The position numbers and the translations under genes are program-made. A stretch of 64,000 nucleotides of DNA from Burkholderiales bacterium. GTDB taxonomy: Bacteria; Pseudomonadota; Gammaproteobacteria; Burkholderiales; Eutrophovitaceae. The notes under the pieces are model-generated. The model had not been told where the DNA came from. It saw only the letters and a program-made list of their open reading frames with translations, and ran no database searches. This document shows, piece after piece, positions 16,810 through 54,948 of this stretch. The stretch is taken from contig JBBDIL010000003.1 in NCBI GenBank assembly GCA_040880425.1, positions 9,225-73,224 on the forward strand. Direction: 5' to 3'. Each line of letters starts with the position of its first letter. The stretch's first letter is position 1.

Positions 16810-17036
16810 GGCTCGTGCCAGATCAGTATCTCGAAGATGCCGGATGGGTGAAACCGGGAATCGTAGCGGTAGCCGTTGCGCTCAAGAATGCGGTACAGCG
16901 GCCGCGGTTCGCGGTCGATAATCATCAGCAGCCGTTCATCCGGACCCAGATCGCCGAGCGCGGACAGCACCCTCTCGAGCGGTTCCGGGGGCTCCAACCC
17001 CCGCACATCCAGCACGACGCGCGCGTCCGGTCCCAT
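16806..17036 (-). CDS. DUF2249 domain protein (TusA-like fold)
   Basis: 76 aa; 'LDVRGLEPPEPLERVLSAL...LLMIIDREPRPLYRILERNGY' typical DUF2249. Confidence 0.75.
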   Translation of the reverse strand: MGPDARVVLDVRGLEPPEPLERVLSALGDLGPDERLLMIIDREPRPLYRILERNGYRYDSRFHPSGIFEILIWHEP

Positions 17037-17042
17037 TGTGTG

Positions 17043-17492: not shown

Positions 17493-17543
17493 GACCTTTC
17501 TGCCATTGCAGAGCATCTTGACCGCTGTCTGGCCCTCCTGGCC

Positions 17544-17557
17544 TTGATTCGGGTCAA
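17544..17557. promoter_or_regulatory. FNR/Dnr-type box TTGATTCGGGTCAA upstream of the hemerythrin operon
   Basis: TTGAT-N4-GTCAA, centred about 58 bp upstream of the hemerythrin ATG. Confidence 0.5.
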
Positions 17558-18531
17558 TTTCGTGGAAAGGCATCGCGGCCCGATGTGGCGTATGCCAGCG
17601 CCGCCAGCAGCATGAGCACGGCGATACCGAGCAGATCGTGTGCAAGCACCATGGCAAACGGGAAATCCGGGCGGATGCCGAACGTGGCAACGGCTGCCTG
17701 CGCAAGTGCGACAGCCGATGTAAAGAGCGCCAGTATGCGCAGTGATCGGGCGGTATGCGAAAGCTGCAGTACCACGCCGCCTGCCGCCACCAGCAGCAAG
17801 ACCGGGGAGAGGCGCTGCGCAAGGCCGAGCGCCTGCCGTGCCGCGTCCGCCGCGGCAGGCTCCAACTGTGCCTCCAGCGCGATAAGCGGATTGAACGCCA
17901 CCAAGTCGGGTCCGCGCCACACCGCACCACATTCTGCAAGCGTCGGGCAGGCGAGCACGACATGATGCGCGTACGCCACGACATTCAGCGCGAAGTACGC
18001 TAAGCCGAGCGACAGCGCGACTGCGGCCGAACCTGCGGTTCTGCGATCCGGGTGCTCAGGCTGCCGAGAGCGGGCACGCAGGTACAGCCACCAGAGAAGC
18101 AGCAGCAGGACCGTCCCCGCCGCGACGTTGCCGAGGATCACCGACGGCGACCCGAATGATTTCGCCATCCGGCCGAGGACGGCAAGGAAAATGGTGAGCA
18201 CGATCACTGCAGTTGCAATGGTCAGGTCGCCCCGTCGCCGCGGTTTCTGCACCCAGGCCAGTCCGACCGCGAGAATCGCCACTGCTCCCATTCCCGAAGC
18301 GGCCAGCCGGTGCAGCGGCCGTGCAATACGATGCAACGGCCGCAGTTCCTCCTGTGCCTGCACCCCGTAACATTCGGGCCAGTCTTCGCAACCGAACCCG
18401 CTCGCGACCAGCCGCATGTAGCCGCTGGTGGTCAGCACCAGAAACATGAGCGCAACGCCGCCGAGCGCCGTCCACCGGAGGAGCGCGCGTTCGTTCCCGT
18501 TGTGCGCAACCAGGCGTGCTGCCCCGCTCAC
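17554..18531 (-). CDS. COX15/CtaA-family protein (Cys-pair type haem A synthase-like)
   Basis: 'GFGCEDWPECYG' and second pair 'ACPTLAECG'; His in TMs (PLHRLAASG, LAHDLLG); about 8 TM. Confidence 0.65.
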   Translation of the reverse strand: MSGAARLVAHNGNERALLRWTALGGVALMFLVLTTSGYMRLVASGFGCEDWPECYGVQAQEELRPLHRIARPLHRLAASGMGAVAILAVGLAWVQKPRRRGDLTIATAVIVLTIFLAVLGRMAKSFGSPSVILGNVAAGTVLLLLLWWLYLRARSRQPEHPDRRTAGSAAVALSLGLAYFALNVVAYAHHVVLACPTLAECGAVWRGPDLVAFNPLIALEAQLEPAAADAARQALGLAQRLSPVLLLVAAGGVVLQLSHTARSLRILALFTSAVALAQAAVATFGIRPDFPFAMVLAHDLLGIAVLMLLAALAYATSGRDAFPRN

Positions 18532-18591: not shown

Positions 18592-19698
18592 TCAGACGAT
18601 CTGCACAGCATGCTCGCCGATCTGACCACGCAGGGCGGGCTCTGTCGCCCGGACCGAAGCGGCTGCCGCGCGCAACTCGTGCATTGCCCAGATGACTGCG
18701 CTCAGCAGCAGCACTGCACCGCCTTGGTGTGCTACAGCCAGCGGAACCGGAACCACCAGCAGCAGCGTCGCGACGCCGAGTGCGATCTGTATTGCAAGCG
18801 CAGCCGCCAATGCATGCACCGCAATGCGTGCGCCGCGCGGCATGCCGACGCGCTGTGCGGTCAGCCAGAATCCCGCCACTAACGCCATCAGCAGCCAGGC
18901 AATCATGCGATGGGTGAATTGCACCGTCGTCATGTTGTTGAAGAAGTTCAGCCACGACGGATCGAGCATTAGCATCCCGGGTGGCAGGAAATGCCCGTTC
19001 ATCAGCGGAAACGTGTTGTAGGCATAGCCGGCGCGGATGCCCGCGACCAGCGCCCCGCTCAGCGCCATGACGAAGATCAGCACGGCGAGGCTACCCGCAT
19101 AACCCGAGAGTCTGAGCAGTGCGCCGCTGCCGGCGGCGCGTGCGGGCCGCAGCAAATCAAGCGCGACCCACAACATCCAGCCATAGATCACAAGTGCGAG
19201 CCCGAAATGCGCAGTCAGACGCAGATGACTGACGCGCGGATTGTCCACCAGACCGCTCTTGACCATGTACCAACCCATCGCACCCTGCAAGGCGCCCAGC
19301 ACGAAGATGCCGCCGAGCTGCCAGCGCAGCGCGCCGCGAATCTCGCCGCGTACGAGAAACCATACGAAGGGAACAAGGAAAGCCAGGCCGATCGCACGCC
19401 CGAGCAGCCGGTGGAAGTATTCCCACCAGAAAATGCCCTTGAACTCCGCCAGCGACATGCCCTTGTTCACCTGAAGATACTCGGGCGTCTGCCGGTACTT
19501 CTCGAAGAGAACATCCCAGTCGTTCTGGCTGAGCGGCGGAATGGTTCCAACGATCGGTTGCCATTCCACGATCGAAAGGCCGGATTGCGTAAGGCGAGTC
19601 GCACCGCCTACCACCACCATCGCGAATACCAGCAGGCAGCAGGCGAACAGCCAAATCATGACATTGCGCTGTGCGGCATCGGCAACATTCTCGCGCAT
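18592..19698 (-). CDS. ctaA: haem A synthase (COX15/CtaA, proteobacterial type)
   Basis: '[44 protein letters not shown]...[17 protein letters not shown]' canonical COX15 N-terminus. Confidence 0.85.
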
Positions 19699-19780: not shown

Positions 19781-19794
19781 TTGATGCGAATCAA
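19781..19794. promoter_or_regulatory. FNR/Dnr-type box TTGATGCGAATCAA in the divergent ctaA / oxidase intergenic region
   Basis: Perfect TTGAT-N4-ATCAA palindrome; about 89 bp from the ctaA start and about 100 bp from the 61-aa ORF start. Confidence 0.65.
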
Positions 19795-20114: not shown

Positions 20115-20660
20115 ATGAGTGCAATACTGCCGCCGAGTACCAAGGCCTGGTGGAAGCAGCCGCTGGATCGCGTGGAAGGCACCTGGATAGCGATTGCCTT
20201 CATTTGGTGCCTGATCATGTTTTTCATGATGCCGTACTGGCATGTTTTCGGAAAACAGAATCTTTCCAACGAGGCCTACCGGGTCACGCCGGAGTACTTC
20301 AGCCAGAAGACGCAGGAAATGGTCGATCAGTACACAGTCCGCACCGAGACTGATCTCCAGACACCGGTGGTACGGCCGCCCGCGGGATCCGACGTTTATC
20401 TCATTGCCCGCCTCTGGTCCTGGTGGCCGATCCTTGAACTGGAGAAGGGGCAGAGCTATCGCCTGCATCTTTCTTCCATGGACTATGTCCACTCGTTCTC
20501 CCTGCAGCCGGAGAACATGAACATCCAGGTGTTTCCCGGCTACATGGGCGTCTACACGATCACGCCAACGCGGGCAGGTACCTATTCGATCGTGTGCAAC
20601 GAGTTCTGCGGCATCGGGCACCACACGATGGTGTCGAATCTTTACGTGGTCGAGAGATAA
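20115..20660 (+). CDS. haem-copper oxidase subunit II, single-TM CuA type (B-family-like)
   Basis: One N-terminal TM; CuA motif 'CNEFCGIGHHTM' with upstream His (YVHSFSL). Confidence 0.85.
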   Translation: MSAILPPSTKAWWKQPLDRVEGTWIAIAFIWCLIMFFMMPYWHVFGKQNLSNEAYRVTPEYFSQKTQEMVDQYTVRTETDLQTPVVRPPAGSDVYLIARLWSWWPILELEKGQSYRLHLSSMDYVHSFSLQPENMNIQVFPGYMGVYTITPTRAGTYSIVCNEFCGIGHHTMVSNLYVVER

Positions 20661-20673
20661 GGGAGACCGGGCA

Positions 20674-22386
20674 ATGAACAACGCTGCAAGTTACCGCATC
20701 TGTCCGGATACCGGATTGCAGTTTCACAAGTCCGCGGAACTGCTGATGAAGGCGAACGCCGTCGCAGGGGTGCTTGCGCTGCTTGTCGGTGGCATTCTTG
20801 CGCTGCTGGTAACGCTGACGCGCTGGCCCGCGGTGCGGCTGCTGCCCGCAGACCAGTTCTACCTGGTTCTGACTGCGCACGGCATCGACATGCTGATCTT
20901 CTGGATCATCTTCTTCGAGATGGCGGTCCTGTACTTCTGCTCGTCGACCCTGCTGCGCAGCCGGCTTGCCACCCCGCGCATCGCCTGGGCGGGATTCTCG
21001 CTGATGGTGATCGGCGCGATCGTCACCAACGTCGCGATCTTCCAGGGGGGATCGAGCGTGATGATGACCTCGTATGTACCGATGCCGGCAGCGCCGCATT
21101 TCTATCTCGGGCTGATCCTGTTTGCGGTCGGTGCGCTGATTGGATGCTTCGTGTTCCTCGGCACGCTGGTGGTCGCCCGCGCGGAACGCACGTACGAGGG
21201 CTCGGTACCGCTGGTGACCTTTGGCGCGCTCACCGCCGCGATCATCGCGATATTCACGATTGCGTCCGGCGCGATCATTTTGATCCCGACTTTTCTGTGG
21301 TCGGTTGGTTACATCAACCAGATTGATCCCCTGATGTACAAGACCGTGTGGTGGGCGTTCGGCCACTCTTCGCAGCAGATCAACGTTTCTGCGCACGTGG
21401 CGGTGTGGTACGCGATCGCGGCGATCGTATTCGGCGCCAAGCCCATGTCCGAGAAGGTGAGCCGCGGGGCGTTCCTGCTGTACATCCTTTTCCTGCAGCT
21501 GGCGAGCGCGCACCATCTGCTGGCCGATCCGGGCATCAGTTCCGAATGGAAGATATTCAATACCAGCTACGCCATGTATCTCGCGGTATTGGCGAGCATG
21601 GTGCACGGGCTGACCGTGCCGGGATCGATCGAAGTCGCCCAGCGGGAGAAAGGCCTGAACCGCGGTCTGTTCGAGTGGATCCGTAAAGCACCATGGGGAA
21701 ATCCGGTGTTCTCGGGGATGTTCATTTCACTCATCGGTTTCGGTTTTCTCGGCGGCATCTCCGGCGTGATGATGGGCACAGAGCAGCTCAACATCATCAT
21801 CCACAACACCATCTACGTGCCGGGGCATTTCCACGCGACCGTGGTGGTGGGCACCACGCTCGCCTTCATGGCGTTGACCTACTTTCTTATTCCGACGCTG
21901 TTCCGGCGGGAGATGATCATGCCCGGGCTGGCGAAGTGGCAGCCCTACCTGTTCGGAATCGGGATGTCGCTGTTCTCGCTGTTCATGATGGGCGCGGGCA
22001 CGCTCGGCGTCTCGCGCCGGCACTGGGACATGGCGTTCAGCGGCGCGCAAATGCCGTACGAGTATCCCGGCACCGCCTACCTGATGATGGGGTTGATGGC
22101 GCTGGCGGGTATCGCCGCCACCGTCGGTGGCGTGATCTACCTGCTGGTGACTGTCGGCTCGCTGCTCTGGGGCCGGAGGCTGGACGCGAAGGACACCTAT
22201 ACCGCGAAACTCGTGCCGCATCGACTGCCGCCGGTCGCAGCCGCGATCGAGGGCCATGGCGGCCTCGGCATCAAGGGGTTCGCCGCACCGGGTACGTTCG
22301 TATTCGCGATGGTGTTCCTTGCGGCGTTCGTCCTGTACTACTTCGTGAACTGGAAGTACCTGTCGGAAATCTGGTACATCGGGTGA
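20674..22386 (+). CDS. haem-copper oxidase subunit I, B-family-like but lacking the HPxVY cross-link tyrosine (possible NO reductase of the B-derived NOR clades)
   Basis: Collinear with ba3 subunit I as recalled (DPLMYKTVWWAFGH..., LASAHHLLADPGISSEWK, LFEWIRKAPWGNP, HNTIYVPGHFHATV); the ba3 'GHPIVY' position reads 'GHSSQQ'. Confidence 0.8.
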   Translation: MNNAASYRICPDTGLQFHKSAELLMKANAVAGVLALLVGGILALLVTLTRWPAVRLLPADQFYLVLTAHGIDMLIFWIIFFEMAVLYFCSSTLLRSRLATPRIAWAGFSLMVIGAIVTNVAIFQGGSSVMMTSYVPMPAAPHFYLGLILFAVGALIGCFVFLGTLVVARAERTYEGSVPLVTFGALTAAIIAIFTIASGAIILIPTFLWSVGYINQIDPLMYKTVWWAFGHSSQQINVSAHVAVWYAIAAIVFGAKPMSEKVSRGAFLLYILFLQLASAHHLLADPGISSEWKIFNTSYAMYLAVLASMVHGLTVPGSIEVAQREKGLNRGLFEWIRKAPWGNPVFSGMFISLIGFGFLGGISGVMMGTEQLNIIIHNTIYVPGHFHATVVVGTTLAFMALTYFLIPTLFRREMIMPGLAKWQPYLFGIGMSLFSLFMMGAGTLGVSRRHWDMAFSGAQMPYEYPGTAYLMMGLMALAGIAATVGGVIYLLVTVGSLLWGRRLDAKDTYTAKLVPHRLPPVAAAIEGHGGLGIKGFAAPGTFVFAMVFLAAFVLYYFVNWKYLSEIWYIG

Positions 22387-22390: not shown

Positions 22391-23320
22391 ATGCGCAGCC
22401 CAAACTGCGTGACTGAGATGCAGCGCCAGGAGGTGCGCGGCCCGCGGACAAAGCTCGCCGAGGATGTGCGCGCCGTCACGGGTCTGTTCAAGATGCGCAT
22501 CGGCGTCGTCATCACCTGGACTGCGCTGGCCGCGGCCGCGACGACGCCGGGACAAGGACTCCCGGCATGGAAGTTCGCCGTACTCGCGTTCTCGGTGTTC
22601 ATCGCCTCGGCTGCCGCGGGCGCACTCAACCAGTATCTCGAGCGCGACATAGACGCGCGGATGTCACGCACCCGCAACCGTCCGTTCGTCACCGGCGCCG
22701 CGGCCCACGACGGGCGCTGGGTCTGGCTGATCATGGCGCTGACGGCCGGCGCGGTGCTGGCGGCCGCGTACTCCATCAACATGCTGACTGCGCTGTACGT
22801 GTTTCTGGGAGCGTTCTTCTACGCCGTGGTGTACACGGCGTGGCTGAAACGGCGCACCTGGATGAACATCGTGATCGGCGGACTGGCCGGCAGCTTCGCC
22901 GTGCTCGCCGGCGCAGCTGCAGTAGCGCCAGGGCTGCCGATGCAGGCGCTGATCCTGGCGATCGTGCTGTTCCTGTGGACGCCGTCGCACTTCTGGAGTC
23001 TGGCAATCGCCTACCGGGAAGATTATCTGGCGGCAAAGGTGCCGATGCTGCCGGTGGTGATCGGCAACGCCCGCACCGCGCGCGTCATCCTCGCGAACAC
23101 GGTGGTCCTTGTGGCGGTGTCCCTGCTGCCGGTGTTCTACGGCAGTGGCTGGATCTACCTTGCCGGCGCCGCGGCCGGCGGCGCCTGGTTCATCCTGCGC
23201 AATATCGACCTGGTACGCCGGCCGGACGACAGGCGCACGGCAATGAGAAGTTTCTTCGCGTCGCTGGTGCAGCTCTCGCTGCTGCTCGCCGCGGCGATGA
23301 TCGACGCGGCCCTGCTTTGA
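22391..23320 (+). CDS. ctaB: protohaem IX farnesyltransferase (haem O synthase)
   Basis: UbiA-family; 'NQYLERDIDARMSRTRNRP' motif, about 8-9 TM; start may be the internal Met at 22418. Confidence 0.85.
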   Translation: MRSPNCVTEMQRQEVRGPRTKLAEDVRAVTGLFKMRIGVVITWTALAAAATTPGQGLPAWKFAVLAFSVFIASAAAGALNQYLERDIDARMSRTRNRPFVTGAAAHDGRWVWLIMALTAGAVLAAAYSINMLTALYVFLGAFFYAVVYTAWLKRRTWMNIVIGGLAGSFAVLAGAAAVAPGLPMQALILAIVLFLWTPSHFWSLAIAYREDYLAAKVPMLPVVIGNARTARVILANTVVLVAVSLLPVFYGSGWIYLAGAAAGGAWFILRNIDLVRRPDDRRTAMRSFFASLVQLSLLLAAAMIDAALL

Positions 23321-23403
23321 AGGTGCACGTTTCGGCCGCGGAAAATGCAGATTGAGGCGGGAGCAGGGTTTTCCCGCTCTCTGCGGTGCGAGTGTGGAAC
23401 GAA

Positions 23404-24219
23404 ATGACTCGAATACGTTTCCGGTGCCTGCGATGGTTCGCTGCGACCGTGGCAGCCGTCTCGTCGCTCGGCCTCATGGCAGCGACCAGCGTGCAGCCGG
23501 ATGAAACGGCCGCGCTCGAGTTCAGCCAGGGCGTCCTCGGCAAGAGGGTGCCCGACTACGCGTTTGCGACGCATGCCGGAGAATCGCGTCGTCTGCGCGA
23601 CTACCGCGGCAAACCGCTGCTGGTGACATTCGTCTATACAGCGTGTTTCCAGGCCTGCCCGGTCGGAGTGAAATTCCTCGACCAGGCCGTGGCCCAGGCG
23701 CACAAGGTGATCGGCGCAGACCGGTTTTCCGTCGCGGTCATCGGCTTCAATCAGCCTTTCGATACGCCTGAGGCAATGCGCGCGTTCGCCGTGCGTCACG
23801 GCCTGGTTGATTCCGGGTGGGATTTCGTGAGCCCCGATGCCGGATCGGTGCAGGCGTTGACGGATGATTTCGGTTTCAGCTGGTACGCGACGCCGAAAGG
23901 GTTCGATCACATCGCGCAGGTTACGCTGCTCGATGCAGAAGGGCGCGTGTATCGGCAGATCTACGGCGAGACCTTCGAGGCGCGTGAGCTGATCGAACCC
24001 ATGAGGCAGCTCATCGCCGGGACGCCCGCCCCTGCGGGAGACTGGCGTGCATTCGTCGACAAGGTGCGCCTGTTGTGCACCGTGTACGATCGCTCCAGCG
24101 GTCGCTACCGGCTCGATTATTCTCTGTTCCTGGGTATCGCGATCGGCCTGGGCATTCTCGGTGCCGTGGTCGCCAGCCTGGTGCACGAGTGGCGGCGCAA
24201 CCGGCGTCCGGCGGTCTGA
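23404..24219 (+). CDS. SCO/SenC-family copper chaperone with C-terminal TM extension
   Basis: Thioredoxin fold with 'YTACFQACP' CxxxC and downstream His (FDHIAQV); extra C-terminal TM (LFLGIAIGLGILGAVVASLV); track ORF starts at GTG 23386. Confidence 0.75.
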   Translation: MTRIRFRCLRWFAATVAAVSSLGLMAATSVQPDETAALEFSQGVLGKRVPDYAFATHAGESRRLRDYRGKPLLVTFVYTACFQACPVGVKFLDQAVAQAHKVIGADRFSVAVIGFNQPFDTPEAMRAFAVRHGLVDSGWDFVSPDAGSVQALTDDFGFSWYATPKGFDHIAQVTLLDAEGRVYRQIYGETFEARELIEPMRQLIAGTPAPAGDWRAFVDKVRLLCTVYDRSSGRYRLDYSLFLGIAIGLGILGAVVASLVHEWRRNRRPAV

Positions 24220-24309: not shown

Positions 24310-24323
24310 TTGATGCGCATCAA
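24310..24323. promoter_or_regulatory. FNR/Dnr-type box TTGATGCGCATCAA upstream of the cytochrome b fusion / HCO-like module
   Basis: Perfect palindrome; about 134 bp upstream of the proposed GTG 24451. Confidence 0.6.
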
Positions 24324-24450
24324 TGCACCTCCCGCGCCCCATGGAGGAGCATGCTTGGGTGAGCGTGCCGGTTTTCCCCGGTGCGCAGGACATCGGGGCG
24401 AGGATGACGGCGGCAACCATCGGGACCTGGCTTATCGTGCGGAGCGCGCG

Positions 24451-26325
24451 GTGATCGCGCCTCTGCAGCGCGGCGGGCAATGGCTGTTCATGCGCGTCGA
24501 GGGCGGATTCAATCTGTTCTTCGGGCAGGCGCTCAACCCGCTCTACCACCTGGGCGCAATCACCTTCCTGCTTTTCTGGATTGCGCTTGCGAGCGGTATC
24601 TATCTATACGTGTTCTTCGACACCAGCGTAACGGGGGCGTATGACTCGGTGGCGCGCCTGACGCACGGTCAGTGGTATCTGGGCGGCGTCATGCGCAGCC
24701 TGCATCGCTATGCATCCGACGGCATGGTCATCACCATGCTGTTGCACATGGTGCGGTATTTCGTTTTCGATCGTTACCGGAACTTCCGCTGGTTCTCCTG
24801 GGTGACCGGGGTGATTCTGCTTTGGCTGGTATACGCTTCCGGCATCAACGGCTACATGCTGCCGTGGGACCGTCTCGCCCAGTTCGTGGCGACCGCAACT
24901 GCGGAGTGGATCGACTGGTTCCCCATGTTCGCGGGCGCGCTTGCTCGCAACTTCAGCTTCGAGGGATCGGTGAACGACCGGCTCTTCTCTCTGCTGGCAT
25001 TCCTGCACATCGGTATCCCGCTCGGCCTGTTGATCGCAATGTGGGTGCACACCCAGCGCGTGCCCGGCGCCAGGAGCAGTCCGCCGCCGGCGATCGCGGC
25101 GATGACCGGCGTCGCGCTGCTGGTGCTCGCGGCGGTGAAGCCGGCGGTCAGCCAGGGGCGCGCGGATCTCTCCACCGCAGTCGCGGCGGTCGGGCTCGAC
25201 TGGTTCTACCTCCCACTCTATCCGTTGATCTACGCATGGTCGCCGCGCGATGTCTGGGCGCTGGCGCTGGGCGCAACCTTGCTGCTGTTCGCGATCCCCT
25301 GGCTTGGACGCCGGCGGCGCGAGCGGCTGGCGGAGTTCAAGGCGACTTTCCGTCCGGGCAATCTTTCTGCCCCGGTGCGTGCCGGAGAGACGCTGCTGGA
25401 AGCCGGACTGCGCCAGGGCATACCGCTGCCTTACGACTGCCGCAACGGCGGCTGCGGCGTGTGCAAGGCGGATCTGCTGCAGGGCGCCGTGGACTACGGC
25501 GTGTACCAGAAGACGGCGCTATCCGACGAGGAGAAGGAAGATGGCAGTCTGCTGCTGTGTTGCGCTACCCCGCTATCGGATGTGGACATCGAACTGGAGA
25601 CATCGCGCGAGCACACCGCCACGGTGGTGGACATGCAGCAGCTTGCGCCGGATGTCATGCTGCTCAGGCTAAGGCCCAACAGGCCGGTTTCGTACGTGGC
25701 AGGTCAGTACATCAACATCGTGCTGGAGAACGGCGATACCCGCAGCTTTTCCTTTGCGACCGCGCCTGGCGCGGGTGAACTGATCGAACTGCATGTGCGC
25801 CTGATTCCGGGCGGCAGGTTTACCACGCATGTCTTCACGCGCATGTGCGAAGGCGACCGGCTGCGTTTCCGCGGGCCGTTTGGCGCTTTCACGTTGCAGG
25901 AGGACAGTCCGAGACCGATTATCTTTGTGGCGGGCGCTACCGGATTTGCGCCGGTGAAGAGCATGCTCGAGTACGCGTTCGAGCATGGCATCCGCCGCCC
26001 CATGGTGCTGTACTGGGGTGTGCGCTCGCGTAAAGACCTGTACATGGCGGAAATGCCGGAGTGCTGGGCGCGCGAGCACCAGAATTTCAGCTTTGTGCCG
26101 GTGCTGTCCGAACCGCAGCCGGAAGATGAGTGGACCGGAAGGACCGGCATGGTGCACGAAGCAATACTCGAGGACTTCCCTACGTTGCAGGGCTACGAGC
26201 TGTACGCCTGCGGGTCGATGCAGATGGTGGAGTCCGCGCATCCGGAGTTCATCGCGCAGGGGCTGTCCGAGGATGCCTGTTTCTCCGATGCCTTCACCCA
26301 CGCAGCGCAGGGATCACCGGCATGA
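24451..26325 (+). CDS. fusion protein: di-haem cytochrome b (bc1/b6 N-terminal type) + plant-type [2Fe-2S] ferredoxin + FNR-like FAD/NAD(P)H reductase
   Basis: His pairs 14 residues apart in two helices (SLHRYASDGMVITMLLH; FLHIGIPLGLLIAMWVH), 'NGYMLPWD'; 'CRNGGCGVCK...LLCC'; 'RSFSFA', 'GPFG', 'GATGFAPVKSM'. Start moved to GTG 24451 (GGAG upstream; N-terminus aligns with the paralog; an FNR box sits at the track start 24310). Confidence 0.8.
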   Translation: MIAPLQRGGQWLFMRVEGGFNLFFGQALNPLYHLGAITFLLFWIALASGIYLYVFFDTSVTGAYDSVARLTHGQWYLGGVMRSLHRYASDGMVITMLLHMVRYFVFDRYRNFRWFSWVTGVILLWLVYASGINGYMLPWDRLAQFVATATAEWIDWFPMFAGALARNFSFEGSVNDRLFSLLAFLHIGIPLGLLIAMWVHTQRVPGARSSPPPAIAAMTGVALLVLAAVKPAVSQGRADLSTAVAAVGLDWFYLPLYPLIYAWSPRDVWALALGATLLLFAIPWLGRRRRERLAEFKATFRPGNLSAPVRAGETLLEAGLRQGIPLPYDCRNGGCGVCKADLLQGAVDYGVYQKTALSDEEKEDGSLLLCCATPLSDVDIELETSREHTATVVDMQQLAPDVMLLRLRPNRPVSYVAGQYINIVLENGDTRSFSFATAPGAGELIELHVRLIPGGRFTTHVFTRMCEGDRLRFRGPFGAFTLQEDSPRPIIFVAGATGFAPVKSMLEYAFEHGIRRPMVLYWGVRSRKDLYMAEMPECWAREHQNFSFVPVLSEPQPEDEWTGRTGMVHEAILEDFPTLQGYELYACGSMQMVESAHPEFIAQGLSEDACFSDAFTHAAQGSPA

Positions 26326-26873
26326 ACACGCGAGCCGCATCCAGCGTGACCGTGCGCTACATTGGCCAGGCGCTGCTGTATGGACTGTTTGTCACGGCCA
26401 TCGGCTATTTTTCGACTTCGCCGGAGTACACGCATCTTCGGCCGCGAGAGGCGCTGATGAAGGTCTCCTTCACGCATGCCGCACAGCGGGTCGGAGATTG
26501 CCGCATGCGCACCGATGAGGAACTCGCTCGCATGCCGCCGAACATGCGCATCCGTGAAGACTGCCCGCGCGAGCGCGCGCCGGTGACGATCGAGGTCGCT
26601 CTGGACGGACAGATGCACTTCCGCGAAGTGCTTAACCCGACCGGTTTGGCGCGCGACGGCGCGGCCTCCATGTACCGTCGCATCGTCGTCCCTGCCGGCG
26701 AGCACCATGTTGCGGCACGCCTGTCCGACCGGCGCGATGGCGCGTTCAATCATGCGAAAGAGCAGACCATTCTGCTTGCTCCGGCCGATATCCTGGTGAT
26801 TGAGTTCCATGCAACCGCCGGCGGTTTCGATTTCCTTTATCCGCTCAGGGAGGCGCAGCTTGATCGAGATTAA
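26322..26873 (+). CDS. hypothetical membrane-anchored protein (one N-terminal TM plus about 140-aa soluble domain)
   Basis: ATG 26322 overlaps the upstream stop (ATGA); TM 'IGQALLYGLFVTAIGYF'; no recognisable cofactor motif. Confidence 0.55.
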   Translation: MNTRAASSVTVRYIGQALLYGLFVTAIGYFSTSPEYTHLRPREALMKVSFTHAAQRVGDCRMRTDEELARMPPNMRIREDCPRERAPVTIEVALDGQMHFREVLNPTGLARDGAASMYRRIVVPAGEHHVAARLSDRRDGAFNHAKEQTILLAPADILVIEFHATAGGFDFLYPLREAQLDRD

Positions 26874-26930
26874 GTTTCCAGCTGTGTACCCCCTGTAGGA
26901 TGGTTTCAATGTCGGGTGGTGAACTCAATC

Positions 26931-28451
26931 ATGCTCTCGGGCATCCGGGTCTCTTTGCTGCACGGCTGGCGCGCGCTCGAGACGACGTTCGATCGAGCGT
27001 TTGGCGCACGCGACAATCCGCTGCGCCACCTGGGCGCTCTGGGTTTCTACTTCTTCTGGGTAGCGGCGGCGAGCGGGATCTACCTGTATGTGTTTTTCGA
27101 TACCAGCGTCGCCGGTGCGTACCGCAGTGTGGAGGCGCTGAGGCACCAGCCGTGGCTGATCGGCAGCGTCGCGCGCAGCCTGCATCGCTATGCTTCCGAC
27201 GGCTTCGTGGCGGTGATGTTTCTCCATCTCGTGAAGGAAACGCTGGCCGCCCACTACCGCGGATTCCGTCTGTTCTCGTGGCTTACCGGTGTGCCGCTGA
27301 TCTGGCTGGTATACGTGTCCGGAATCGGTGGCTACTGGCTGGTATGGGACCGCGTTGCGCAGTTTTCCGCTGCCGCGACGATGGAATGGCTCGACTGGCT
27401 GCCGCTTTTCGGCGAACCGCTTGCGAGAAATTTTCTGCATGCCGGCAGCGTGAGCGACCGCTTTTTCTCGTTGCTTGTGTTCGTGCACATTGGCGTGCCG
27501 CTGCTGCTGCTGCTCGGCATGTGGGTGCATATCCAGCGCGTGAGCCTGGCCGACACCGCGCCGCCGCGCCGGTTGGGCTGGGGCGTGGCTGTCGCGCTGC
27601 TCGCGCTTTCACTGCTGAAACCGGCGCTCAGCGCGCCGCCCGCCCATCTCGATACCGAACCGGCGCGCGTCGCGCTCGACTGGTTCTATCTGTTCGTGCA
27701 TCCGCTGGCCTACCGGACATCCGCCGGGTTCGCCTGGGCGCTGGTGTTCGGTGCGACCCTGTTGCTCGCCGCCGCGCCGTTGTTGTCACGCGCGCGGCCC
27801 GAACCAGTGGCGAAAGTCGATCCGGAAAACTGCAACGGCTGCGGCCGCTGCGTGGCCGATTGTCCGTACGCCGCGGTACAGCTGGTGCCGCATTCGTTGA
27901 AAGGGAAGTACCGTATGCAGGCGCAGGTCGACCCGGACCTGTGCGCAGCCTGCGGCATCTGCGCCGGCGCCTGTCCGTCCTCGACACCGTTTCGCCGGAT
28001 GGAGACGCTGGTGAGCGGTATCGACATGCCTTTGCTGCCGATCGGCGTGTTACGGGGACGGCTCGATTCTGCGCTTTCCCGGCTCGTCAGCAGACCGCGC
28101 GTGGTGATTTTCGGCTGCGAATGCGCGGCGGACGTAAACACGCTTGCGGCGCCGGGCGTTGCAAGTTTCAGCCTGCCGTGTATCGGCAACCTGCCGCCTT
28201 CGTTTGTCGAGTACGCGCTGCGCAACGGCGCGGACCGCGTGCTGGTGACTGGCTGCCGCGAGGGCGACTGCGCGTACCGGTTCGGCAATCGGTGGATCGA
28301 GCAGCGATTCTCAGGGGAGCGCGAACCTCATTTGCGCCGGCATGTGGCGCGCGAGCGCGTGCGCATCGCCTGGGCGAACGCCGGCGACGAGGAACGGCTG
28401 CGTGCTCAACTGACGGAATTCTGCGAGCCCCGGGCGCGGCGTTTGTCGTGA
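26931..28451 (+). CDS. fusion protein: di-haem cytochrome b + 2x[4Fe-4S] ferredoxin + MvhD/FlpD-like domain
   Basis: Paralogous cyt b domain (SLHRYASDGFVAVMFLH; FVHIGVPLLLLLGMWVH; GGYWLVWD); 'CNGCGRCVADCP' and 'CAACGICAGACP'; 'VVIFGCECAAD...LPCIGNLPPSFVEYALRNGADRVLVTGCREGDCAYRFGNRW' FlpD/MvhD pattern; alternative GTG start 26916. Confidence 0.8.
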   Translation: MLSGIRVSLLHGWRALETTFDRAFGARDNPLRHLGALGFYFFWVAAASGIYLYVFFDTSVAGAYRSVEALRHQPWLIGSVARSLHRYASDGFVAVMFLHLVKETLAAHYRGFRLFSWLTGVPLIWLVYVSGIGGYWLVWDRVAQFSAAATMEWLDWLPLFGEPLARNFLHAGSVSDRFFSLLVFVHIGVPLLLLLGMWVHIQRVSLADTAPPRRLGWGVAVALLALSLLKPALSAPPAHLDTEPARVALDWFYLFVHPLAYRTSAGFAWALVFGATLLLAAAPLLSRARPEPVAKVDPENCNGCGRCVADCPYAAVQLVPHSLKGKYRMQAQVDPDLCAACGICAGACPSSTPFRRMETLVSGIDMPLLPIGVLRGRLDSALSRLVSRPRVVIFGCECAADVNTLAAPGVASFSLPCIGNLPPSFVEYALRNGADRVLVTGCREGDCAYRFGNRWIEQRFSGEREPHLRRHVARERVRIAWANAGDEERLRAQLTEFCEPRARRLS

Positions 28452-28467
28452 GAGGGGGAGTCAATCC

Positions 28468-29904
28468 ATGAGATCAGGCGGTCAGGTTAACGGCACCGCA
28501 GGAACTTTCGGCCACCGTCTCGTGCTGCCGGCCCTGCCGCAGGTGCTCTATACGCTTGATGTGCCGCGGGATGCGCGCGCACGGCTGGCGCTGAACTGGA
28601 TCGTTCTCGGTCTGGTAGCGTTGATCGGAGCAGGCGTGTTTTCGGCCCTGCTGGTGGCATCGCGCACCCCCTTCGTGCAGAGCGTGTTTCCGCTGGTGGA
28701 CTTCTTCCGGGTTGCGCTGGTGGTGCATGTGGACCTTTCCGTGCTGGTCTGGTTTCTGGCGTTTGCCGGCGCGCTTTGGAGTCTGAACAGTACCCGGCGC
28801 TGGATGCCGCTGGGCTGGACTGCGCTTGCCGCCTGCGCCCTTGCCACACTGATGATGGTGATCGCACCGTTTGTCGGTCAGCCGGTGCCCATCATGAGCA
28901 ACTACATCCCGGTGCTCGACAGCCCGCTGTTTCGATGGTCACTGGTGGTGTTCGCCGCAGGGGTGGCGGCGGTTCTGCTGCGCGGCATGGGCGCGGTCCC
29001 CAAGGTGGGTGCGCAACTGGACGGAGCCGGCGTGCTGCGTTTCGGGCTGAACGCCGCGGCGATTTCAGCGGCGGTTGCGCTGGGCGCGTTCATCTGGTCC
29101 TGGCTCGCAGTGCCGCCGGCGCTCGACGGCAAGGCCTACTACGAATTGCTGTTCTGGGGCGGCGGCCACGTGCTGCAGTTCACCTGGACGCTGCTCATGT
29201 TCGCCGCATGGCTGTGGCTCGCCGGCGAAGGCGGTTGCCCGATTCCGCTCACGCCCCGCGTGACACTGCTGCTGTTCGCCATCACGCTCGCAATCGTGTT
29301 TCTGACTCCGGTGATCTATCTTGCGCACGACGTTACTTCAGTCGAGCATCACAAGCTGTTCACCTGGCAGATGCGCTTCGGCGGCGGGCTGACAATCCTG
29401 CCGATGGCGCTCGCGGTGGTGATTGCGCTGGCGCGCGCCGCGCCGGCCCGTGCCGAGGAGAAACCGCTGCGTGCGGCGCTGATCATGTCGCTCGCTCTGT
29501 TCGCCTTTGGAGGCCTGATCGGTGTGGGCATCGACGGCTCGAATGTGAAAGTCCCGGCGCATTATCACGGCAGCATCGTCGGCGTAACACTCGCGTTCAT
29601 GGGCGTGGTCTATCTCCTGCTGCCGCGCCTGGGGTTTGCGTCCCCGCCTTCGCGCGCTGCCGCACTGCAATGCTGGCTCTACGGTGCGGGGCAGATGCTG
29701 CATATCACCGGGCTGGTGTGGTCCGGCGGCTACGGCGTGCAGCGCAAGGTCGCAGGAGCGGAGCAAGGCCTGGATGCGATCGAGAAGATTGCGGGCATGG
29801 CACTGATGGGTTTCGGCGGCCTCGTCGCCGTGATCGGAGGACTGATGTTCCTGGTGATCGTGCTGCGCGTGCTGGCGCGCGGACGTACGGGTGCGCCACG
29901 GTAG
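28468..29904 (+). CDS. orphan haem-copper-oxidase subunit I-like protein (12-TM core, no cognate subunit II)
   Basis: All six canonical HCO His present: H87 (VVHVD), H234 (GGGHVLQF), H294/H295 (VEHHK), H365/H367 (VPAHYHGSIVGVTLAF, compare VPGHFHATVVVGTTLAF in the 570-aa subunit I); Phe, not Tyr, at His234+4; GGGGGAG SD. Confidence 0.7.
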   Translation: MRSGGQVNGTAGTFGHRLVLPALPQVLYTLDVPRDARARLALNWIVLGLVALIGAGVFSALLVASRTPFVQSVFPLVDFFRVALVVHVDLSVLVWFLAFAGALWSLNSTRRWMPLGWTALAACALATLMMVIAPFVGQPVPIMSNYIPVLDSPLFRWSLVVFAAGVAAVLLRGMGAVPKVGAQLDGAGVLRFGLNAAAISAAVALGAFIWSWLAVPPALDGKAYYELLFWGGGHVLQFTWTLLMFAAWLWLAGEGGCPIPLTPRVTLLLFAITLAIVFLTPVIYLAHDVTSVEHHKLFTWQMRFGGGLTILPMALAVVIALARAAPARAEEKPLRAALIMSLALFAFGGLIGVGIDGSNVKVPAHYHGSIVGVTLAFMGVVYLLLPRLGFASPPSRAAALQCWLYGAGQMLHITGLVWSGGYGVQRKVAGAEQGLDAIEKIAGMALMGFGGLVAVIGGLMFLVIVLRVLARGRTGAPR

Positions 29905-29928
29905 CGGGCGCGGGTGCGGTGGCGTGAC

Positions 29929-30369
29929 ATGACGACGAACCCGGATCTCCCTCTGGTGTATTCCTGCTCTGGATACTCGAGCGCGGCGCAGATGGCGAAC
30001 TACCTCGCGCTCCGGCTGGATCGTATCGGTGCGGCGGAAATGTCGTGCATCGCGGGCGTGGGCGGCGCCGTGCCGCATCTGGTCCGGATCGCACGATCCG
30101 GACGACCGATCGTGGCGATCGACGGTTGCCAGCTGGTGTGCACGGCGAGCTGCCTCGGTCGGCAAGGCCTGCAGCCGGTACTGCACCGCGTCCTGTCCGA
30201 CCACGGTGTGCGCAAGCGCTATCACACCGAATTCGACGAGCGGGAAGCGCAGCGCCTGCTGTCGGAACTGCTGCCGGCGGTCGAACACGCGCGCCGCGGC
30301 GCACGGGAATTGCCGGCGCTCCCCGGCGGCGCGGGCGCAGACGGCGGCGCACCGGGCGGGCATCGGTGA
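29929..30369 (+). CDS. DGC-domain putative metal-binding protein
   Basis: 'VYSCSGYSSAAQ...', 'AIDGCQLVC' DGC motif; GTGA overlap with ubiU. Confidence 0.6.
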   Translation: MTTNPDLPLVYSCSGYSSAAQMANYLALRLDRIGAAEMSCIAGVGGAVPHLVRIARSGRPIVAIDGCQLVCTASCLGRQGLQPVLHRVLSDHGVRKRYHTEFDEREAQRLLSELLPAVEHARRGARELPALPGGAGADGGAPGGHR

Positions 30370-31379
30370 GCGGGCGCGCGCCCATCGAACTGGTCTGCCC
30401 CGCCGGCAGCCTGGCCGCGCTCAAGGCCGCGGTCGACGCCGGTGCCGACTGCGTGTATCTCGGTTTTCGCGACGACACGAACGCGCGCAACTTCAAGGGT
30501 CTGAACCTGGACGCGGCGGATCTTGCGGACGGATTGCGCTACGCGCACGCGCGCGGCCGGCGCGTGTTCGTGGCGATCAACACCTATGCGCAGGCGGGCG
30601 CCTTCGAGCGCTGGTGCCAGGCAGTCGACCGGGCGGCGCAGCTCGGTGCCGATGCGGTGATTCTGGCCGACCCTGCGCTGCTGCAGTACGCCGCTTCGGC
30701 ACAACCGGATCTGCGCCGGCACCTGTCGGTGCAGGGTTCGGCCACCACGTACGAGGCGATCAACTTCTACCGCAGACAGTTCGGCGTGTGCCGCGCTGTG
30801 CTGCCACGTGTGCTGGCGCTGCCGCAGATCGAGAAGCTGATGCAGCATGCCGAAACGGAGATCGAGGTGTTCGGCTTCGGCAGCCTGTGCGTGATGGTGG
30901 AAGGCCGCTGCGCGCTGTCGTCCTACGTCACCGGGCAGTCGCCGAATACGGCAGGCGCGTGTTCCCCGGCTGGCGCGGTACGCTGGCAGCAGACGCCGCG
31001 GGGCCTGGAATCGCGGCTCTCGGATGTGCTGATCAACTGCTATGCCGACGGCGAAAAGGCCGCGTATCCGACGCTGTGCAAGGGGCGCTATCGCGTCGAC
31101 GACGACGTCTACTACGCGATCGAGGAGCCGGCCAGCCTGAACACGCTCGCGCTGCTGCCGGAATTGCTGCGCATCGGCGTCTCGGCGATCAAGATCGAAG
31201 GCCGCCAGCGCAGCGTGGCCTATGTGGCGGAAGTCACGCGTACCTGGCGCGCGGCGATCGACGTTTGTGCCGCCGATCCCGCACGTTTCGCGCCGCGCGG
31301 CGCCTGGATGTCGCAGCTCGACCGGCTGGCCGAGGGCCAGCAGCACACGCTCGGTGCGTACCACCGGCCATGGCGGTGA
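30366..31379 (+). CDS. ubiU: U32-family protein UbiU (O2-independent ubiquinone hydroxylation)
   Basis: 'IELVCPAGSLAALKAAVDAGADCVYLGFRDDTNARNF' peptidase-U32 N-terminus, Cys cluster (CVMVEGRCALSS...C); followed by ubiV and an SCP2 gene; start set at GTG 30366. Confidence 0.75.
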   Translation: MSGRAPIELVCPAGSLAALKAAVDAGADCVYLGFRDDTNARNFKGLNLDAADLADGLRYAHARGRRVFVAINTYAQAGAFERWCQAVDRAAQLGADAVILADPALLQYAASAQPDLRRHLSVQGSATTYEAINFYRRQFGVCRAVLPRVLALPQIEKLMQHAETEIEVFGFGSLCVMVEGRCALSSYVTGQSPNTAGACSPAGAVRWQQTPRGLESRLSDVLINCYADGEKAAYPTLCKGRYRVDDDVYYAIEEPASLNTLALLPELLRIGVSAIKIEGRQRSVAYVAEVTRTWRAAIDVCAADPARFAPRGAWMSQLDRLAEGQQHTLGAYHRPWR

Positions 31380-31383
31380 CGCG

Positions 31384-32286
31384 GTGAAACTCGCGCTCGG
31401 ACCGCTGCTGTACTACTGGCCCCGCGACGCGGTGTTCGCTTTCTACGAGCGTGTCTCCCGGGCGCCGGTGGACATCGTCTATCTCGGTGAAGTCGTCTGC
31501 TCGCGTCGGCGCGAGCTGCGCATGCAGGACTTGATGGAGATTGCGGACGGACTGGCGCGTGCCGGCAAACAGGTGGTGCTTTCCACGCTGGCCCTGCCCG
31601 AGACCGACGCCGACCTGCGCCAGGTAAAGAAGGTGTGCGACAACAGCCGCCACGTGGTCGAGGCGAACGACATGGCGGCGGTCCACATGCTTTCACGCGC
31701 CGGGACCGCATTCGTCTCGGGACCGCACGTCAACGTCTACAACGGGCCCACCCTCAGGCTGCTGAGCGGACTCGGAGCCGAGCGCTGGGTCATGCCGCTG
31801 GAGCTGGCGTCGGACGCGCTCGCGGCGATCCTGCGCGACCGGCCGGAAGGCATGGAAACCGAGGTGTTCGTGCTCGGACGCATGCCGCTTGCGTTCTCGG
31901 CGCGATGCTTCACCGCACGCCATTACGATCGCGCCAAGGACGACTGCGGTTTCATGTGCCGGGATCACCCGGACGGTCTCGCTTTGCAGACACGCGAGCG
32001 TTCGCCCTTCCTCGTATTGAACGGCATCCAGACCCAGTCGTGGCGCGTGTACAACCTCGCGCGCGAACTACCGGCGCTCGCCGCAGCCGGTGTGGACGTG
32101 GTGCGCATCAGCCCGCAGTCAGTCGATACCATCGAGTTGCTGGAATGCGTGCGTGCGATGCTCGACCGGAATCCGGTGCCGGAGGGGCAGCTCGCGCATC
32201 TGGACGCATTGCTGCCGGCGGAAAGCTGTAACGGTTACTGGCACGGGCTGCCCGGCATGACGCGTGCGCCGGCAGAACCGGCATGA
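31384..32286 (+). CDS. ubiV: U32-family protein UbiV
   Basis: 'KLALGPLLYYWPRDAVFAFYERV...VDIVYLGEVVCSRRRE' YhbV-like; partner of ubiU; start set at GTG 31384. Confidence 0.75.
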   Translation: MKLALGPLLYYWPRDAVFAFYERVSRAPVDIVYLGEVVCSRRRELRMQDLMEIADGLARAGKQVVLSTLALPETDADLRQVKKVCDNSRHVVEANDMAAVHMLSRAGTAFVSGPHVNVYNGPTLRLLSGLGAERWVMPLELASDALAAILRDRPEGMETEVFVLGRMPLAFSARCFTARHYDRAKDDCGFMCRDHPDGLALQTRERSPFLVLNGIQTQSWRVYNLARELPALAAAGVDVVRISPQSVDTIELLECVRAMLDRNPVPEGQLAHLDALLPAESCNGYWHGLPGMTRAPAEPA

Positions 32287-32777
32287 GTTTCTTCCCGCTG
32301 CCGTTTCCATCGTCTCTCGTCGACGCACGGGCGATGATCTCTTCGCTTGCCGGCCTGCCGGGTTCGCTGGCGCTCGTGACTGCATTGAACGTCGCCTTCG
32401 AGAGATTTCCGGAGGGACTCGATTCTCTGGAGGGTAAGCGCGTGTGCATGCATACGACCGATCTGGGATTGCGCGCCTATCTCACACTCCGCGGCCAGGC
32501 GTTCGTGGTCTGCCACCCGGTATCGGATCCGGATGTCCTGATCCGGGCAAGTGCGGCGGACTTTTTTCGACTCGCGAGCCGAAAAGCGGACGCCGACACG
32601 CTGTTCTTCGCGCGTCGCCTGCTGATCGAAGGCGACACCGAGGCAGGACTCCTGCTGAAGAATGCGCTGGATGCGCTTGACCTGGCCCGGCTGCTGCACA
32701 ATCCGCCTGCTCTGCATCGGCTTCTGGCGGTGCTCCGCGCAAGCTTCCGCGGTCCGGCTGTCAAACCCTGGAGCTAA
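32283..32777 (+). CDS. ubiT: SCP2 domain protein UbiT (ubiquinone biosynthesis accessory factor)
   Basis: SCP2 sterol-carrier pattern ('IRASAADFFRLASRKADADTLFFARRLLIEGDTEAGLLLKNALD'); ATGA overlap with ubiV. Confidence 0.7.
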   Translation: MSFFPLPFPSSLVDARAMISSLAGLPGSLALVTALNVAFERFPEGLDSLEGKRVCMHTTDLGLRAYLTLRGQAFVVCHPVSDPDVLIRASAADFFRLASRKADADTLFFARRLLIEGDTEAGLLLKNALDALDLARLLHNPPALHRLLAVLRASFRGPAVKPWS

Positions 32778-48126: not shown

Positions 48127-48140
48127 TTGACCCACATCAA
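48127..48140. promoter_or_regulatory. FNR/Dnr-like box TTGACCCACATCAA upstream of the c2-like cytochrome gene
   Basis: One mismatch; centred about 88 bp upstream of ATG 48045. Confidence 0.45.
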
Positions 48141-54934: not shown

Positions 54935-54948
54935 TTGACGAAGGTCAA
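54935..54948. promoter_or_regulatory. FNR/Dnr-like box TTGACGAAGGTCAA upstream of nirC
   Basis: Palindromic TTGAC-N4-GTCAA just downstream of the nirM terminator. Confidence 0.5.

Follow-up and report, generated by a model that had tools for sequence, protein, structure and literature searches.

A haem-copper oxidase subunit-I paralogue and two cytochrome b fusions in an eNOR gene cluster: a conserved unit with a possible role in haem a maturation

Enzymes of the eNOR type are thought to be responsible for a large share of environmental nitric oxide (NO) reduction and nitrous oxide (N2O) production; the eNOR of R. marinus, which carries haem As in both of its sites, has been isolated and is active as an NO reductase, and the haem A synthase CtaA is O2-dependent (Murali et al. 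2024, PMC11214002). An eNOR operon has already been described for Ferrigenium straubiae, with the gene order eNOR subunit II, eNOR subunit I, haem o synthase, Sco1, Cytbc1CCC-like protein 1, a hypothetical protein, an 'eNOR scaffold protein', PerM and Cytbc1CCC-like protein 2 (Becker et al. 2026, bioRxiv 10.64898/2026.01.22.701106). The same preprint reports two 'rather unusual' cytochrome b fusions, one with Fe-S, FAD and NADH domains and one with Fe-S domains. It proposes the former as a quinol:NAD+ oxidoreductase, suggests a supercomplex coupling NO reduction to NAD+ reduction, and flags the supply of haem a to eNOR under anoxia as unsolved. The "eNOR scaffold protein of unknown function", whose arrangement is called 'a very common observation', is given no analysis there; in the supplement it is gene 2878407321, assigned to KEGG K02274, cytochrome c oxidase subunit I.

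Here we compare with these systems a 64,000-nucleotide stretch of a Burkholderiales bacterium (GCA_040880425.1, contig JBBDIL010000003.1, positions 9,225-73,224, forward strand; G+C content 63%), called the window throughout. We focus on five of its genes, labelled A (cytochrome b, [2Fe-2S] ferredoxin and FNR-like reductase), B (a protein with a single transmembrane helix), C (cytochrome b, two [4Fe-4S] clusters and an FlpD domain), D (a protein resembling subunit I of haem-copper oxidases, HCOs) and E (a DGC-domain protein). An earlier, sequence-only reading had taken them for one respiratory module delivering electrons to D as an unconventional NO or micro-oxic O2 reductase. Its calls for the domains of A, C, D and E all hold, as each scores above the Pfam gathering threshold in hidden Markov model scans, which we used for domain assignment throughout. 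Across its family, however, the association of D is with haem A/O synthase genes, not with cytochrome b fusions or NO reductases. As far as we could find, this link has not been made in the literature. Gene context and conservation lead us to propose, tentatively and with a confidence that falls somewhat short of even, that A to D form a haem a maturation and electron-relay module for eNOR.

Upstream of the five genes, and on the same plus strand, an eNOR-type NO reductase is predicted at 20115-22386. Subunit II (20115-20660, 181 amino acids, Pfam COX2) has a single transmembrane helix and a cupredoxin domain carrying the CuA motif H...CNEFCGIGHHTM. It adjoins subunit I (20674-22386, 570 amino acids, Pfam COX1 at 236 bits), which is related to the B-family HCOs: its best relatives in the PDB are the T. 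thermophilus ba3 chains (E of about 1e-47), compared with E values of 5e-11 or higher for A-family chains. The ba3 segment GHPIVY aligns with GHSSQQ, so that a Gln replaces the cross-linked Y237, and a Gln at this position is the criterion by which eNOR subunit I is recognised (PMC8756737). These are followed by ctaB for a haem O synthase of the UbiA family (22391-23320, Pfam UbiA at 182 bits) and a gene for a SCO1/SenC copper chaperone-like protein (23386-24219, Pfam SCO1-SenC). Two genes of the CtaA family lie on the minus strand, one for a COX15-type haem A synthase paralogue (18592-19698, Pfam COX15-CtaA at 368 bits) and one divergent ctaA-like gene with two Cys pairs (17554-18531, 51.5 bits); counterparts of the latter stand directly downstream of D or A in many related eNOR-type loci. 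The locus thus resembles the R. marinus system (PMC11214002) in its B-family-related subunit I, in the Gln for Tyr and in the CuA-bearing subunit II, and it contains ctaA homologues. The likeness belongs to these upstream genes: a CuA partner is lacking for D, the residue at its Tyr/Gln position is Phe, and its family has no conserved tri-His site. We had also considered the label sNOR for the upstream oxidase (as in norSY-senC of ammonia oxidisers), which the senC gene suggested. It was dropped because of the Gln at the cross-link position, the retained Ser equivalent to ba3 S309, the ctaA genes in the locus and the classification of the syntenic F. straubiae operon as eNOR. The sequence-only reading had described D as an orphan HCO-like subunit and the window as lacking an NO reductase. 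Neither description survives, since eNOR subunits II and I, including a CuA subunit, are encoded immediately upstream, about 4-8 kb from D and in the same conserved cluster.

The extent of this cluster was determined by comparison across genomes. Relatives of D were scanned in one genome per species for 185,579 species, which gave at least 600 pattern-matching stretches, at least 595 of them encoding a D relative, and the 80 best loci out of these were analysed by tblastn. Fifty-one loci had at least 8 kb upstream of D. An eNOR-I homologue at least 50% identical to that of the window was present in 49 of them, as were SCO1/SenC and B; ctaB and C were found in 47 each and A in 41. In 49 of the 80 best loci, subunit I is immediately preceded by a gene for a CuA-type subunit II. 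Two gene orders predominate, II-I-ctaB-SCO-A-B-C-D, which is that of the window, and II-I-ctaB-SCO-C-B-D-A. Where the flank was long enough (46 loci), E and ubiU, in contrast, were each present only twice. The conserved unit, as seen across 160 related loci, is therefore A-B-C-D directly behind eNOR II, eNOR I, ctaB and SCO1/senC, not the five-gene set A to E; the expected conservation of the gene neighbourhood was borne out for the first four genes.

The window represents another instance of the operon type noted for F. straubiae. Gene content is the same and gene order nearly so, the two cytochrome b fusions have the same domain make-up, and D is annotated as a subunit I there as here, the two being matched by order and annotation, not by sequence. 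By gene order and annotation only, 2878407319 corresponds to A, the hypothetical protein 2878407320 to B, 2878407321 to D and 2878407323 (ferredoxin/F420-hydrogenase delta subunit) to C. The order there is A-B-D-PerM-C, whereas the window has A-B-C-D without a PerM gene. The proteome table of the preprint contains values for the counterparts of eNOR II, eNOR I, Sco1, A, D and C, but none for the haem o synthase and PerM, and the B counterpart is not listed (bioRxiv 10.64898/2026.01.22.701106 supplement). The statement that no complex of this composition has been characterised thus still holds for A to D, although the operon has been described and its proteins have been detected in F. straubiae (bioRxiv 10.64898/2026.01.22.701106).

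To these loci we added 80 metagenome loci around more distant relatives of D and several long contigs. Seventy-two loci had 5 kb or more of sequence to either side of D, and in 70 of these ctaA or ctaB was present, compared with 61 for eNOR-I and 62 for the cytochrome b fusions. Haem A/O synthase genes are therefore the most constant genomic partners of D. Among 13 loci with a divergent D (less than 55% identity), 12 contain ctaA or ctaB, and only 5 contain eNOR, a cytochrome b fusion or B. Apart from window-type eNOR clusters, D occurs in two contexts. In uncultured Rickettsiales-like Alphaproteobacteria a ctaA gene (COX15) is divergently paired with the D homologue across a gap of 48-227 bp, next to an aminolaevulinic acid synthase gene (loci L093, 7611-12128; L095, 7378-11317; L167, 4525-8365; L169, 4641-8419; also L168 and L170). 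The other neighbours of the pair differ between these metagenome-assembled genomes (MAGs), and no oxidase, cytochrome b fusion or B was seen within 7-10 kb of it. In the other context D has ctaB, ctaA-type and SCO genes around it, and in some loci it closes an A-family cox operon that includes SURF1 (L100, L120, L165). Natural fusions add to this picture. On one metagenome contig D is fused to CtaB directly after eNOR II and I and before SCO (P0237; L082, 419-5620); on another, likewise a single contig, an in-frame fusion of cytochrome b and D is followed by nirS (P0121; L081, 2-3889), the cytochrome b part being a C-type membrane domain without its Fe-S tail. A distant clade of D homologues (L084, 1-6882; L086, 281-2486), which has lost H294, H295 and H412 (numbering of the window protein) and often bears a C-terminal TPR domain, follows ResB and CcsA, which belong to system II of cytochrome c biogenesis, and has genes for a CycH-like TPR protein and a cytochrome c of the decahaem type beside it; the D-TPR fusion is placed after ResB-CcsA and before the CycH-like gene. 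In the protein search, divergent D clades were carried only by uncultured Rickettsiales and Alphaproteobacteria MAGs.

D itself (28468-29904, plus strand, 478 amino acids) reaches only 41.6 bits with Pfam COX1, and neither the single sequence nor a profile matched any PDB chain. Its relationship to HCOs is nevertheless clear. The AlphaFold2 model (predicted local distance difference test, pLDDT, 87.6; predicted template modelling score 0.89) shows the twelve-helix subunit-I fold, and Foldseek aligns it with subunit I of all HCO families at template modelling (TM) scores of 0.57-0.72. Its best structural match is T. thermophilus ba3 (TM 0.70, E=2e-8, 19% identity); the poorest are cNOR and qNOR. 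Alignment of the D and eNOR-I family profiles with hhalign gave 99.8% probability and E=6e-29 over 443 columns at 26% identity, with all canonical histidines in register. D could thus be related to eNOR-I by profile alignment and to ba3 by structure, but to no PDB chain by sequence searches. D is shorter than eNOR/B-type subunit I, being without the C-terminal helix and the loop that joins helices VII and VIII, and we conclude that it is a divergent, shortened paralogue of these proteins with an HCO subunit-I fold. Run against 1.84 billion representatives, the D profile matched 789 proteins at E<=1e-30 and only 1,719 at E<=1e-3, so that it does not extend to ordinary HCOs. The D family is large and distinct, with about 1,700 clusters (50% identity) that its profile matches.

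This kinship with eNOR-I could mean that D is a permanent, non-catalytic subunit of eNOR, a pseudo-enzyme paralogue paired with subunit I, with A and C as a cytochrome-c-independent entry of electrons. The nearest detectable relative of D is indeed eNOR-I, the name 'scaffold protein' and its frequency in eNOR operons agree with such a role, and in the F. straubiae proteome the level of the D counterpart lies between those of eNOR and Sco1 (bioRxiv 10.64898/2026.01.22.701106). We nevertheless regard this as very unlikely, as homologues of D occur in loci without eNOR, beside ctaA alone or beside assembly genes of A-family oxidases. In addition, the R. marinus eNOR was isolated and active, although its subunit composition is not given in the passages available (PMC11214002). 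A function of D as a sensor or regulator was set aside, as the locus has no signalling domains.

Conservation of the metal and haem sites, counted in 124 family representatives and separately in 81 close, eNOR-linked relatives, follows an uneven pattern. The window protein carries H87, H234, H294, H295, H365 and H367, which align with the histidines of eNOR-I. The low-spin haem ligands H87 and H367 are His in 123 and 122 of the 124 representatives, respectively, and the high-spin haem proximal ligand H365 and the first CuB-site residue H234 in all of them; each of these four is present in 81 of the 81 close relatives. The two helix-VII metal ligands differ: H294 is His in only 36 of 124 representatives (79 of 81 close relatives) and H295 in only 8 (26 of 81). 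Besides the bis-His low-spin site, the proximal His and H234, the family retains Gln237 and the propionate-binding Arg426/Lys427 pair, which like Tyr146 and Trp230 are near-invariant, but the remaining two CuB/FeB ligands are not conserved in it. In the motif G-H234-V-L-Q237-F238 the position four residues after the first His is Phe in 94 of 124 representatives, and D thus has neither the cross-linked Tyr nor the Glu of cNOR and qNOR that mark catalytic HCOs. All six histidines reported by the sequence-only reading are there, but the set is a property of the D of the window and not of the D family, which lacks the helix-VII pair. Compared with ba3, the haem ligands of D sit on the same helices; it differs in lacking the cross-link Tyr and helix XIII, in its shorter loops and in CuB ligands that are not conserved family-wide. 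According to PMC11214002, the tri-His site is completely conserved in all other HCO families, with gNOR, in which one His is replaced by Asp, as the first exception. We found no literature on HCO homologues lacking CuB ligands. With so few His at the two helix-VII positions across the family (36 and 8 of 124), it is unlikely that D works through a canonical binuclear centre.

These counts bear directly on the proposal of an unconventional NO (or micro-oxic O2) reductase, or an enzyme that detoxifies NO, with D as its catalytic subunit. D would be fed from NAD(P)H through A or from ferredoxin-type donors through C, via di-haem b to its low-spin and then its high-spin haem. The architecture and topology would fit, with Fe-S and flavin domains in the cytoplasm, a six-helix cytochrome b and the haems of D near the outer face, and so would the fusion of cytochrome b with D upstream of nirS, the six histidines of the window protein, the subclade that keeps H234, H294 and E293, and the FNR/Dnr box within a denitrification island. 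Yet an eNOR is already encoded next door, and the tri-His site that is conserved in other HCO families (PMC11214002) is not conserved in this one. Moreover, many D homologues have no cytochrome b fusion, subunit II or NO reductase nearby but do have ctaA or ctaB, and in other clades D is fused to CtaB or follows ResB-CcsA. We therefore consider such an enzyme unlikely. The earlier notion of a cytoplasmic reductant acting through di-haem b on an HCO-type centre stands as far as the relay is concerned, which is plausible in its architecture and finds support in the one cytochrome b-D fusion, whereas the canonical binuclear centre at its end does not.

In our view D more likely helps to make or load the haem of eNOR than acts as a new NO reductase. 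We read it as a haem-handling derivative of subunit I because its metal-B ligands decay while its haem sites stay, because its universal partners make haem o and haem a and it is even fused to one of them (CtaB), because it stands beside oxidase-assembly genes of two HCO families, and because another clade sits in a gene cluster for haem attachment to cytochrome c. Since eNOR has modified haem a in both sites, CtaA depends on O2 and the supply of haem a under anoxia is in question, we propose that D receives and hands over haem o or haem a. As a scaffold shaped like subunit I, it would take farnesylated haem from CtaB or CtaA and pass it to eNOR subunit I, the recipient that would need haem As in both sites.

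The two cytochrome b fusions would supply the electrons in this scheme. A (24451-26325, plus strand) combines Pfam Cytochrome_B (73 bits), Fer2, FAD_binding_6 and NAD_binding_1. Its 671-amino-acid open reading frame is over-extended: homologues begin with M-x3-5-LQRAGQW, which places the probable start at GTG 24451. C (26916-28451, plus strand; its start may be ATG 26931) combines Cytochrome_B (55 bits), two Fer4 domains and an MvhD/FlpD-like domain (Pfam FlpD). Both have six-helix cytochromes b with four haem-binding histidines; the pairs spaced 14 residues apart on helices B and D, which had been noticed before, are at least 95% conserved in 51 homologues of A and 67 of C. The reductase half of A is nearest to NAD(P)H-flavin reductase and to the oxygenase reductases BenC, MmoC and AntC but scores below the NCBIfam equivalog cut-offs; the arrangement of [2Fe-2S], FAD and NAD(P)H domains at its C-terminus is shared with NqrF, BenC and MmoC, again with scores far below the cut-offs. 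The soluble half of C resembles the ferredoxin-MvhD tail of HdrA2, far below the equivalog cut-off. The positive-inside rule, together with the requirement for NAD(P)H, leads us to infer that the Fe-S and flavin domains of both proteins are cytoplasmic. With such domains anchored to a membrane-spanning di-haem cytochrome b, either protein is plausible as an electron relay. In A electrons would pass from NAD(P)H via FAD, [2Fe-2S] and haem bH to haem bL, and in C from a ferredoxin-type donor via two [4Fe-4S] clusters, an MvhD-type cluster and bH to bL, so that cytoplasmic reducing power could reach haem centres on the outer side. The third membrane protein, B (26322-26873, plus strand), has an N-terminal transmembrane helix followed by a beta-sandwich domain (AlphaFold2 model, pLDDT 93), which is probably periplasmic, with invariant C60 and C81 and an NMR...CPRER motif. 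It matches no Pfam or NCBIfam family, and Foldseek against PDB folds returned no cupredoxin, cytochrome or other convincing match. We had considered B as a degenerate cupredoxin subunit II; this was not supported, as the only hits were generic beta-sandwiches with TM of about 0.35. B is the only constant small partner of D, which has no CuA, haem c or cupredoxin-fold partner, and divergent D loci lack such a partner as well; B would probably serve as a periplasmic cap or partner of D.

Both fusions also keep elements of the quinol-oxidising Qo pocket of bc1 complexes, namely the cd-loop Y-x-L-P-W-D and the PEWY-like ef-loop D-W-F(Y), at 95% or more (YMLPWD and DWFY in A, DWF in C). A and C thus share with the cytochromes b of bc1 and b6f complexes the four-His di-haem bundle and Qo-region motifs, but their ef-loop is D-W-F(Y) and not PEWY, they have no helices after F, and a fusion of cytochrome b to cytoplasmic Fe-S/flavin domains is not a feature of characterised bc complexes. 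Neither a Rieske nor a cytochrome c1/f gene was seen among the genes identified in the conserved cluster, where no search was aimed at either. The Qo elements speak for the model of Becker et al. 2026, in which A is a quinol:NAD+ oxidoreductase in a supercomplex with C and eNOR and NO reduction, through the large free energy that it releases, drives the reduction of NAD(P)+ or ferredoxin from quinol. The same is true of the tight linkage of the A and C genes to eNOR and of the presence of the proteins in F. straubiae, a denitrifier that lives autotrophically by Fe(II) oxidation and depends on reverse electron flow (bioRxiv 10.64898/2026.01.22.701106). On the other side, no Rieske-type partner was identified among the cluster genes, although none was specifically searched for, A is missing from about one fifth of the loci, and electron flow from the outer to the inner side would presumably oppose the membrane potential. 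The carriers include Noviherbaspirillum, Ramlibacter, Rhizobacter, Steroidobacter and Quisquiliibacterium, presumably for the most part heterotrophic genera in which reverse electron flow would serve no evident need, and this also counts against the model. It leaves D without a role and does not explain the link of D to ctaA and ctaB. On balance we think it improbable that the model applies, and still more so its variant in which the two electrons of quinol are divided, in the manner of a Qo site, between eNOR/D and the bL-bH-Fe-S chain, so that the reduction of NAD(P)+ is coupled to that of NO; this we regard as highly doubtful.

If A to D instead serve haem a maturation, the likely recipients of the electrons from A and C would be haem A synthase, in the form of CtaA or its ctaA-like paralogue, or the haems of D, or both, and the outcome would be haem a that is made and loaded when O2 is scarce. 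Yeast Cox15 reportedly needs ferredoxin and ferredoxin reductase (Yah1/Arh1), and an electron supply to haem A synthase by A and C would parallel this requirement of the mitochondrial enzyme. We know of no identified reductant for bacterial CtaA. The comparison with known haem a biogenesis (CtaA/Cox15 with ferredoxin and its reductase; Surf1/Shy1) is one of proposed function, which would be analogous only, and of the ctaA, ctaB, SCO and SURF1 neighbourhoods that D shares. D is not homologous to Surf1/Shy1 but has an HCO fold, and, unlike A, none of the known CtaA reductases is fused to a di-haem cytochrome b.

Several points weigh against a role of the module in maturation. D keeps a complete two-haem layout for electron transfer, and the invariant polar residues near its former active site (Y146, E226, Q237, and H412 in most clades) would suit catalysis. 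Since H294 is kept in 79 of 81 eNOR-linked proteins, a metal site with two His and perhaps a Glu is possible there. Genes for CtaA and CtaB are common in HCO operons because these enzymes need haem o or a, which is compatible with D being itself an enzyme that contains haem a. The fusion of cytochrome b with D points to direct electron exchange between the two and not necessarily with CtaA, and the Qo-like motifs of A and C suggest a quinol chemistry for which maturation has no need. Furthermore, loci with D only imply that D works without A or C, and the assignment of the module is drawn from gene context and conservation. A more radical version of the maturation scheme is a machine for haem a synthesis and insertion at low O2 or independently of O2, in which D would hold haem o in its subunit-I-like pocket while the cytochrome b fusions move electrons between this site on the outer face, or else the ctaA-like paralogue, and NAD(P) or ferredoxin in the cytoplasm. 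We consider this distinctly unlikely; if it were true, the paradox of an eNOR that needs an O2-dependent cofactor would be resolved and the missing redox partner of bacterial haem A synthase identified.

Were the module to serve haem a maturation as proposed, it would explain how eNOR is assembled in denitrifiers at very low O2, it would point to the reductant of bacterial haem A synthase, and D should not be counted as an oxidase or NO reductase in genome surveys. If instead the module couples the reduction of NAD(P)+ to that of NO, or is itself an NO reductase fed with NAD(P)H, it would represent a new bioenergetic device. Cultured carriers allow a direct test, among them Noviherbaspirillum sp. 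ST 5-3, Quisquiliibacterium transsilvanicum DSM 29781, Pelomicrobium sp. G1 and the F. straubiae culture KS. In public records D would inflate counts of terminal oxidases in genome surveys; no annotated plasmid record matched it.

The module of the window is preceded by a perfect FNR/Dnr box, TTGATGCGCATCAA at 24310-24323, as the sequence-only reading had stated. With A starting at GTG 24451, the box lies 128 bp upstream of the gene and not inside it. It is one of two TTGAT-N4-ATCAA sites in 64 kb, where 0.02 are expected, and is predicted to mark an FNR/Anr/Dnr-regulated promoter. The other perfect site, TTGATGCGAATCAA (19781-19794), lies between the divergent COX15-type ctaA gene and eNOR subunit II. 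Sites of the relaxed form TTGA-N6-TCAA number six in the window against 0.54 expected, and in 22 of the 80 best related loci such a box lies between SCO and the first cytochrome b fusion gene. The genes after the box are co-directional, with gaps of 43 bp or less or 4-bp overlaps, and no convincing intrinsic terminator was found inside the array from A to ubiT. From this layout the region is predicted to be the distal half of an FNR/Dnr-controlled eNOR operon, which in the genome of the window runs on into the DGC gene and ubiUVT. Compared with F. straubiae, a perfect FNR/Dnr box of its own and the read-through into DGC-ubiUVT would be local peculiarities of the module. FNR/Dnr-type boxes were also seen at 48127-48140, 54935-54948 and 57234-57247, within the nirS/haem d1 part of the island, one of them in a nirS-nirE-like divergent intergenic region, and a gene for a CRP/FNR-family regulator is located at 58827-59519. 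The whole window looks like one low-oxygen regulon.

E (29914-30369, plus strand, Pfam DGC, PF08859, at 104 bits) had been counted as the fifth gene of the module, but belongs with ubiUVT and not with the A-D redox genes, because it adjoins ubiUVT in every case and in either order, before ubiU or after ubiT (window, 29914-32777; L002, 11564-14589; L053, 15596-18470; L058, 12052-14955; L059, 10997-13909). The three genes follow E directly, as expected from the earlier reading, and all exceed their NCBIfam equivalog cut-offs: ubiU (30366-31379, GTG start at 30366, 542 bits against 440), ubiV (31384-32286, 389 against 275) and ubiT (32283-32777, 117 against 46.9), all on the plus strand. UbiUVT serve O2-independent ubiquinone biosynthesis. 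The constant proximity, together with the overlap of the E stop with the ubiU start (GTGA at 30366-30369), suggests that E is an undescribed accessory factor of this pathway; a literature search for DGC-domain proteins in connection with UbiUVT found none.

Two further groups of genes were recorded in the island. The nir part contains a gene for a 169-amino-acid membrane protein (45029-45538) with a weak match to Urate_ox_N (PF06181). On the minus strand, a string of genes at 15382-18531 comprises the divergent ctaA-like gene, a hemerythrin-domain gene (17043-17501), a DUF2249/TusA-like gene (16806-17036) and a gene for a 475-amino-acid membrane protein that matches no Pfam family (15382-16809). 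A TTGA-N6-TCAA box lies within this string at 17544-17557, and the succession of a ctaA-like gene and a DUF2249 gene recurs downstream of the module in many related loci (e.g. L102, L104, L127, L142).

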